Shown here: piece by piece, positions 29,960-30,550 of the stretch
Layout of the letters: each line of letters begins with the position of its first letter
Position numbering within the stretch: position 1 is the first letter of the stretch
Assembly: GCF_024502345.1 (NCBI RefSeq)
Contig: NZ_JALDNN010000001.1
DNA: 64,000 bases
Reading direction: 5' to 3' (one strand)
From: Escherichia coli
GTDB lineage: Bacteria > Pseudomonadota > Gammaproteobacteria > Enterobacterales > Enterobacteriaceae
Notes under the pieces: generated by a model
The model's input: only the letters and a program-made list of their open reading frames with translations
The model's database searches: none
Told to the model about the DNA's origin: nothing
Translations under genes and position numbers: made by a program

Positions 29960-30550
29960 TTATAGTGCATCTACCATATCCCGTACCTGAGATAATAACG
30001 ACTGATAATAGCTCGCGTGAAGTTCTTCCCCATCGAATACCACTGTATTACACAAGAAAGTGACATCGGCATCTTCAATACCAAGATAACTACACATATT
30101 TTTTAAATAATCGCTTATATTTTTTTCCCAGCCCATCTGGACAAATGATTCTTTGTCTCCTCCAACCAGCGCCACCCAACGAACTTTATTGAATGGTAAT
30201 TTGTGCCCATCTCCATAAGCCAGCCCATTATTCCATACTCTGTCAATATATCCTTTTAGCATTGCCGGGAAGCTGTACCACCAGAGAGGAAAAACCACCA
30301 CTAACGTGTCATGCTCAAGCAGCTCTGAATAAAGCTGATGAACCTCTGGAGAATAACGTTTATCCATATTCTTCCAGTCTGGTTCATCTTCCGACGTCAT
30401 CACCGGGTTGAAATTACGCCGATATAAATCGAGTTCCGTCACCTGTATTTTCCGCTCCATTGCCCGCTGATGGATTGCATCAGCAATATGTGCGGTCAAT
30501 GAATCATGACGAGGATGGGCCCATACCAAATAAATACGTTCAGACTGCAT
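29960..30550 (-). CDS. ycaK: Flavodoxin-like NAD(P)H-dependent oxidoreductase YcaK
   Basis: ORF track, 196 aa, MQSERIYLVWAHPRHDSLTAHIADAI... AT-rich with rare codons (see findings). Confidence 0.8.
   Translation of the reverse strand: MQSERIYLVWAHPRHDSLTAHIADAIHQRAMERKIQVTELDLYRRNFNPVMTSEDEPDWKNMDKRYSPEVHQLYSELLEHDTLVVVFPLWWYSFPAMLKGYIDRVWNNGLAYGDGHKLPFNKVRWVALVGGDKESFVQMGWEKNISDYLKNMCSYLGIEDADVTFLCNTVVFDGEELHASYYQSLLSQVRDMVDAL

Follow-up and report, generated by a model that had tools for sequence, protein, structure and literature searches.

AT-richness of ycaK, one half of a dispensable and possibly long-resident regulator-reductase module of Escherichia coli

The AT-richness of the Escherichia coli gene ycaK is real and beyond chance, although the gene is a moderate outlier (1st to 4th percentile) and not an extreme one. 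About half of its GC deficit comes from amino-acid composition, with low GC1 and GC2, and about half from synonymous codons shifted toward AT. We put at slightly above even the probability that ycaK and its divergent neighbor ycaN form a long-resident, dispensable and weakly selected module, made of a LysR-type regulator and a quinone reductase, which is AT-rich by way of its amino acids and of mutation bias. In this proposal, the two genes would constitute an accessory module, resident for a long time in a variable slot that lies between ycaD and pflA in the Enterobacteriaceae. The amino-acid composition of the YcaK family would supply around half of the AT-richness, and the synonymous half would most likely be upheld by GC→AT mutation bias where selection on codons or sequence is weak, with an ancient foreign origin perhaps adding to the synonymous shift. 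The module would be functional yet dispensable, and would have been repeatedly deleted in E. coli. Mutation bias from GC to AT is universal; we infer both that it is the cause here and that ycaK is expressed at a low level.

The DNA analyzed, referred to below as the window, is a stretch of 64,000 nucleotides of E. coli chromosome, whose counterpart in MG1655 is found in reversed orientation at about 920–984 kb. Between positions 29900 and 30700 it is up to 100% identical to RefSeq E. coli genomes, where the two genes are annotated as ycaK, NAD(P)H oxidoreductase, and ycaN, LysR family transcriptional regulator. Gene order is that of MG1655, reversed: focA-pflB-pflA-ycaK-ycaN-ycaM-ycaD-ycaC-dmsCBA. 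The features that matter here are the following.

29888..29927, plus strand: intrinsic terminator of pflA, from a terminator scan and junction alignments; left boundary of both deletion alleles.
29960..30550, minus strand: ycaK (b0901), 196 amino acids, an NQO1/MdaB-like flavodoxin-fold NAD(P)H oxidoreductase, from its ORF and translation, RefSeq annotation and Pfam/NCBIfam.
30551..30649, no strand assigned: putative divergent control region of ycaK and ycaN, 99 bp, from a promoter scan and a six-genus alignment.
30650..31558, plus strand: ycaN (b0900), 302 amino acids, a LysR-type regulator divergent from ycaK (Pfam HTH_1 and LysR_substrate).
31559..32989, minus strand: ycaM (b0899), an APC-family permease, whose stop codon abuts that of ycaN.
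33148..33190, no strand assigned: hairpin AAGCAGAGTGTGAA...TTCACACTCTGCTT directly 3′ of the ycaD stop codon, a putative terminator recognized from the raw sequence and from the junction alignment with locus L003; right boundary of the 3.2-kb deletion allele.

A preliminary description of this DNA had called ycaK conspicuously AT-rich after a hand count of about 41% GC over 30061..30300. The measured value is 40.8%, with 28, 50, 40 and 45% in the four 60-nt windows, and the contrast then drawn with the neighbors holds for whole genes: 42.6% GC in ycaK (GC1/GC2/GC3 = 54.8/32.5/40.6%), against 50.1% in pflA and 46.8% in ycaN. The rare codons TTA, ATA and AGA, also singled out at that time, occur 6, 2 and 1 times. 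As a baseline we used 246 annotated E. coli genes, none shorter than 300 nt, which come from the window, from four 50-kb MG1655 segments and from the ribosomal-protein/tufA/fusA region (mean and SD 51.4 and 3.4 for GC, 54.2 and 6.2 for GC3); CAI was computed against 31 ribosomal-protein genes plus tufA and fusA. Measured in this way, the GC of ycaK is the sixth lowest of the 246 genes (z -2.6), its GC3 stands at the 2nd percentile (z -2.2), its CAI of 0.285 at the 4th, and its rare-codon fraction at the 92nd. Over 303 kb of E. coli DNA the ycaK interval belongs to the lowest 3.2% of 591-bp windows for GC, and all other similarly AT-rich 591-bp windows of the 64 kb overlap intergenic regions.

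Codon choice explains only about half of the low GC; the other half, missed by the preliminary description, is a matter of amino acids. Written with average E. coli codon usage, the amino acids of YcaK would give 47.4–48.6% GC, already at the 7th to 8th percentile, and the synonymous residual amounts to -4.5 points (1st percentile). GC-ending synonymous codons number 65 out of 181, as against 87.9±6.4 expected if the amino acids of YcaK were encoded in the manner of low-CAI E. coli genes (z -3.55). Among the leucine codons, CTG makes up 15% and TTA 30%, the corresponding baseline values being 52 and 11%. Atypical codons such as these speak for a different history, in which an ancestor of several Enterobacteriaceae acquired the genes long ago from an AT-richer donor and their third positions were incompletely ameliorated. 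The dinucleotide signature of ycaK-ycaN speaks against that history, since it is typical of E. coli: delta* is 91, the baseline being 67±26, and 14% of E. coli windows of the same size deviate at least as much. There is also a difficulty for the reading that we prefer. The 44 baseline genes with a CAI below 0.33 have an average GC3 of 0.512±0.069, and low CAI alone therefore does not predict the GC3 of ycaK; as low-CAI genes are on average not as AT-rich as ycaK, weak codon selection by itself is not obviously enough.

The neighbors on the ycaN side differ in this respect. ycaN is shifted in the same direction as ycaK (GC3 43.6%, 5th percentile; CAI 0.341, 24th percentile), whereas ycaM is near normal (GC 47.6%, GC3 53.7%, CAI 0.356, 32nd percentile), and so are the GC and GC3 of ycaD (52.1 and 60.6%; CAI 0.302, 8th percentile). 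The shift is spread across the synonymous sites of both ycaK and ycaN, and is not concentrated in one patch. This bears on the idea that AT-richness is itself selected, be it for silencing by H-NS or a Nac-type nucleoid protein, or for a regulatory or antisense element within the gene, at the patch 30061–30120. With 28% GC that patch is indeed very AT-rich, and a RIL-seq study lists an RNA fragment from the ycaK 3′UTR as an sRNA partner (PMC8175672). Besides the spread of the shift across two genes, other results count against the idea: Rfam has no match in 28900–34700, the promoter scan yielded 3 sites for 2.0±1.3 expected and thus no excess, and a literature search on H-NS and ycaK returned nothing specific and no H-NS binding data. 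We consider selected AT-richness quite improbable.

Within the species, ycaK is a variable gene. Its region was matched in 3,342 of 5,426 complete E. coli genomes (with 80% or more of the query covered in 3,320), and about 39% of the genomes are without it. Three alleles can be told apart, at about 61, 19 and 19%. Besides the full form, a second allele, whose junction is invariant across 1,024 genomes (O157:H7, O145 and O157:H16 strains among them), has lost ycaK and all of ycaN except a 111-nt 3′ fragment. This fragment, annotated by PGAP as an incomplete gene, lies beside an intact ycaM, and its retention shows that the allele derives from the full form. The junction of this 1.5-kb deletion holds a 43-nt filler, for which neither the window nor any of the fetched loci has a match. 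The third allele (1,047 genomes, CFT073 among them, again with an invariant junction) is a 3.2-kb deletion without ycaK, ycaN and ycaM, in which the pflA terminator is fused directly to the hairpin downstream of ycaD. The assignment of alleles to phylogroups rests on a few named strains, namely K-12, CFT073, O157:H7, O145 and O111:H8. A few genomes carry other rearrangements, for instance IS1 at this position.

Could the gene instead be a recent islet, inserted into the carrier lineages (A, B1 and relatives), with the B2-type pflA/ycaD junction as the ancestral empty site? The large share of genomes without ycaK would fit, as would the cleanness of the B2-type junction, which runs from terminator to terminator with no remnant, and a scan of species-representative genomes with YcaK returned no Escherichia locus. 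The supposed empty site, however, is also without ycaM. In Salmonella, ycaD, ycaM and pflA follow one another with order and orientation unchanged, and YcaM is about 83% identical or more, its sequences falling into the same 90% cluster as E. coli YcaM; ycaM therefore predates the E. coli-Salmonella split, and the third allele, from which this ancestral gene is missing too, is a deletion. The ycaN fragment kept by the second allele also counts against an insertion, as does the presence of the pair in the same slot in two other genera. At the borders of the full allele (the pflA terminator and the ends of ycaM and ycaD) there is no integrase, transposase, IS, tRNA or direct repeat, no close plasmid copies of ycaK were found, and the nearest YcaK outside E. 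coli is 67–69% identical. Some of the E. coli “plasmid” matches are records of 1.3 and 4.8 Mb, too large for plasmids, so that these at least are likely to be chromosomal. The complete cluster is present in MOD1-EC4550, a divergent Escherichia lineage whose flanks are 94.7–99% identical to the window. Judging from junctions and synteny, the ycaK-less E. coli genomes appear to have arisen by loss and not by gain. The recent island is thus strongly disfavored, to the point of being effectively excluded, and we rate it as very improbable.

ycaK does resemble the accessory genes of atypical composition and the classical genomic islands in its low GC, GC3 and CAI, in its variability among strains and in its patchiness among genera. 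It differs from classical islands in having no mobility genes, tRNA site or flanking repeats and in its normal dinucleotide signature; moreover, its absence reflects deletions, and synteny of the module extends to other genera.

Outside E. coli, the identity of genuine YcaK relatives falls from 98–99%, the value within the species, straight to 67–69%. Apparent homologues at 72–90% identity (P0004–P0008 and P0018), which could have passed for sister-species orthologues, are artefacts: P0005 and P0018 differ by C→T-type substitutions only, P0004 and P0006 have an insertion and a deletion, and L091 is a frameshifted stretch of E. coli DNA with 99% identity. The pair occupies the same slot in two other members of the Enterobacteriaceae. 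In Pseudocitrobacter corydidari the order is dmsABC-ycaD-ycaN-ycaK-(CBAH hydrolase, LysR)-pflA-pflB, and identity to E. coli is 76–79% for YcaN, 67–69% for YcaK, 82% for YcaD and about 82% (81.5%) for DmsC; in Enterobacteriaceae bacterium 89 the order is ycaD-LysR-ycaN-ycaK-pflA. Because of this shared slot, the normal dinucleotide signature and the lack of mobility hallmarks, no discrete acquisition of the module by E. coli seems to be visible at the locus.

The same divergent pair is found in Hafnia, Limnobaculum and Rahnella at other, unrelated loci, which brings the pairing to six genera (E. coli and five others). The identity matrices of the two proteins have a roughly tree-like structure, in which E. 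coli and Pseudocitrobacter are mutually closest (68.6% for YcaK, 76.2% for YcaN) and a second group comprises Hafnia, Limnobaculum and Rahnella. The distribution of the pair, which the preliminary description had suggested examining in the Enterobacteriaceae, is patchy across the Enterobacterales. The taxon lists of YcaK and YcaN largely coincide, with Pseudocitrobacter, Hafnia, Budviciaceae, Shimwellia, Serratia, Pectobacterium, Cedecea, rare Salmonella, one Pseudomonas and one Janthinobacterium; since both lists include even the last two, the pair travels as a unit. At some depth the ycaN-ycaK module has probably moved horizontally. The syntenic Salmonella site (ycaD-ycaM-pflA) is without ycaN-ycaK. 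Its 291-bp ycaM-pflA spacer yielded no convincing remnant, the one tblastn match to ycaN/ycaK being marginal (27% over 55 amino acids, E=0.008 in a tiny search space). The lists of YcaK and YcaN matches, in which 90%-identity clustering could hide orthologues, contain no protein under the name of Citrobacter, Klebsiella, E. albertii or E. fergusonii. Given these absences, vertical descent would imply many independent losses.

Most matches of the species-representative scan were to Paenibacillus and came through one conserved peptide, at loci with no ycaN, ycaM, pflA or ycaD nearby. Outside E. coli and Salmonella the closest relatives of ycaM are from Firmicutes (63–70% identity), but for want of those neighbors the Paenibacillus loci provide no link between YcaK and this Firmicute-like ycaM.

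The ancient acquisition introduced above with the codons draws further on these distributions. It would explain why YcaK and YcaN are equally patchy, out to the single Pseudomonas and the single Janthinobacterium, why Hafnia, Limnobaculum and Rahnella carry the pair at unrelated loci, and why orthologue GC3 is about 0.10 below that of the neighbors in Pseudocitrobacter and Rahnella (about 0.10–0.14 when E. coli is included). The orthologues of bacterium 89, Hafnia and Limnobaculum, on the other hand, have no such deficit, and no donor was identified among the relatives found. Residence would go back at least to the E. coli-Pseudocitrobacter split, so that under amelioration models most of the deficit should have decayed. 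As to the GC3 deficits themselves, present in Pseudocitrobacter and Rahnella but not in the others, a shared AT-rich origin fits them about as well as mutation bias does.

Polymorphism within E. coli adds evidence on both constraint and direction. In 13 genomes carrying the complete set, piN/piS amounts to 0.175 in ycaK and 0.218 in ycaN, and to 0.00–0.09 in the flanking genes ycaC, ycaD, ycaM, pflA, pflB and focA; weak constraint on ycaK-ycaN is supported. GC→AT and AT→GC polymorphisms stand at 26:8 in ycaK plus ycaN and at 131:91 in the flanks, a borderline difference (Fisher p=0.059) obtained from 13 non-independent genomes with the minor allele taken as derived. This lean is suggestive, and points away from ongoing amelioration, under which changes from AT to GC would be expected. 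The preliminary description had offered either an old transfer or low constraint as the cause. The second gains support from piN/piS, from the deletions and from the GC→AT lean, and the first is neither shown nor excluded; taking both sides together, we regard ancient acquisition as possible, though doubtful. By its intact ORF, its conserved promoter region and its piN/piS below 1, the module nevertheless looks functional, in keeping with the long-resident but dispensable module that we favor.

Both genes were already annotated, and accessory genes of atypical composition are known to be commonplace in E. coli. The significance of the case is mainly one of annotation hygiene, since it shows that an E. 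coli gene of outlying composition is not necessarily a recent island; as a by-product, it yields precise deletion junctions that divide 5,426 complete genomes into three alleles. A broader reading would make the ycaD-pflA interval a long-lived gene-turnover slot holding genes of different origins (ycaM, ycaN-ycaK, ycaC, and sopD2 nearby in Salmonella), with the two deletion alleles as possible lineage markers that have physiological consequences and with losses that are niche-adaptive. This we hold to be unlikely. B2-type strains such as CFT073 are without reductase, regulator and permease, and O157:H7-type strains without reductase and regulator. If YcaK detoxifies a niche-specific quinone or nitro-aromatic compound, its losses could be niche adaptation and not neutral decay. 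In Salmonella, sopD2 lies near the ycaD-pflA interval.

In the putative control region, a sigma-70-like promoter is predicted for ycaK on the minus strand, TTTACA-17 nt-TAAAGT, from 30610 to 30582 of the window. When the 99-bp region is aligned across the six genera, the best-conserved columns are the -35 block GTTTACAGGATTAT and the -10 block GTAAAGTG. A TTCA-N11-TGAA dyad, TTCATTAACTCATCCTGAA, can be read directly 8 nt upstream of the ycaK -35 hexamer, and is a candidate LysR-type box. In sharing a 99-bp region with a T-N11-A dyad and a conserved promoter, ycaN and ycaK resemble the divergent pairs of LysR regulator and target described for E. coli LTTRs (PMC9068703). They differ from such pairs in that the targets reported for YcaN by ChIP-exo and by RNA-seq of a deletion mutant are the adjacent ycaC and ycaD and not ycaK, which was not reported as differentially expressed in that study, where the role of YcaN is called unknown (PMC9068703). 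We infer that YcaN may regulate ycaK. The conserved promoter and candidate operator region can serve as a guide for work on both proteins.

YcaK itself is predicted to be a flavin-dependent NAD(P)H:quinone-type oxidoreductase. It matches the full domain of Pfam PF02525 Flavodoxin_2, the family of the two-electron quinone reductases of NQO1, NQO2 and MdaB type, with 138.1 bits over residues 5–181 (cutoff 27), and the NCBIfam equivalog NF007280 “NAD(P)H oxidoreductase” with 353.5 bits over residues 1–195 (cutoff 162). Among solved structures, the nearest are 4R81 and 3LCM, both NAD(P)H quinone reductases from bacteria, together with NQO1 and NQO2 of mammals; the PDB matches cover the N-terminal ~115 residues only (E ~1e-14 to 1e-8). 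In a nitroreductase screen, E. coli YcaK served as the naming reference for Pseudomonas candidates, and no activity data for YcaK itself are given there (PMC3695803). The protein belongs to the same fold family as KefF and KefG, E. coli paralogues that serve the glutathione-gated K+ efflux systems as ancillary flavoproteins, and its C-terminal half locally matches the KefF and KefG profiles and the KefC-KefF structure 3EYW. Its scores, however, are far below the curated cutoffs of those two families (59.1 bits for 210 in the case of KefF, 50.6 for 240 in that of KefG), and the ycaK gene has no kefB or kefC beside it, the neighbors being pflA and the LysR regulator gene ycaN.

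The neighbourhood of pflA and ycaD may be a zone of gene turnover, and another sign of this comes from Salmonella enterica, in which a SopD-family gene (PF11047; 10939-11898 of the Salmonella locus L092) is located between pflA and pflB, while the dmsC-ycaD interval is devoid of ycaC. The SopD-family gene has a GC content of 33.5% and a GC3 of 26%. The features of this neighbourhood considered here are the following:

30551-30649, the intergenic region between ycaN and ycaK
31559-32989, minus strand, ycaM
34661-35287, plus strand, ycaC
2432-2475 of locus L002 (E. coli PapRG-06-5), a filler of about 43 nt, GCATAAATAATTCAGAGCTCTATTTCTCACGCCCTTACAGCACA, at the junction in the allele that carries the 1.5-kb deletion

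The shift toward AT is also found in ycaC, whose GC (46.4%) and GC3 (45.0%) fall in the 7th-8th percentile of the 246 annotated E. coli genes of at least 300 nt. Besides Salmonella, ycaC is missing at this locus in Pseudocitrobacter and in Enterobacteriaceae bacterium 89. As for ycaM, the best homologues of its product beyond E. coli and Salmonella belong to Paenibacillus, Brevibacillus and Clostridium (63-70% identity), with no further Proteobacteria among the best 120 hits. This distribution of related sequences suggests that the gene passed long ago between Firmicutes and an ancestor of E. coli and Salmonella.

In E. coli LD93-1 (L004, 1-4816), the end of a P2-like prophage carrying integrase, Cox and repressor lies directly upstream of pflA (about position 29136 of the window), and alignment to the window stops at the start of pflA in several genomes (H39, H47), which together suggest that the pflB-pflA interval holds an attachment site for a prophage. 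In the same LD93-1 locus, ycaK-ycaN-ycaM is replaced by IS1. In the 1.5-kb deletion allele, it is the filler that separates the pflA terminator region from the ycaN remnant, and a search for its source gave no match within the window or among the fetched loci.

Conservation across genera is higher in the ycaN/ycaK intergenic region than in the coding sequence of ycaK: between E. coli and Pseudocitrobacter the first 70 or so nucleotides of the intergenic region are nearly identical, whereas the 480 nt of ycaK that could be aligned are 75% identical. Two database “homologues” of YcaK from Logan assemblies, P0005 and P0018 (72-88% identity), differ from the E. coli protein only by replacements of the C→T type (H→Y, P→L/F, R→C/W, A→V, T→I/M). 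Their probable source is reads that had undergone bisulfite conversion or deamination, and such sequences may mislead distribution analyses.

Elsewhere in the window, the lowest-GC stretch of 591 bp (25321-25911, 35.7% GC) takes in the intergenic DNA between ycaO and focA, upstream of the latter, together with the 5′ end of focA itself. Finally, ftsK (43001-44777 and upstream) aligns with its MG1655 counterpart in a single piece over the 3′ 1.8 kb only, and its annotated length varies among RefSeq strains (3990, 4044 and 4068 nt), both being consistent with a length-variable region in the gene.
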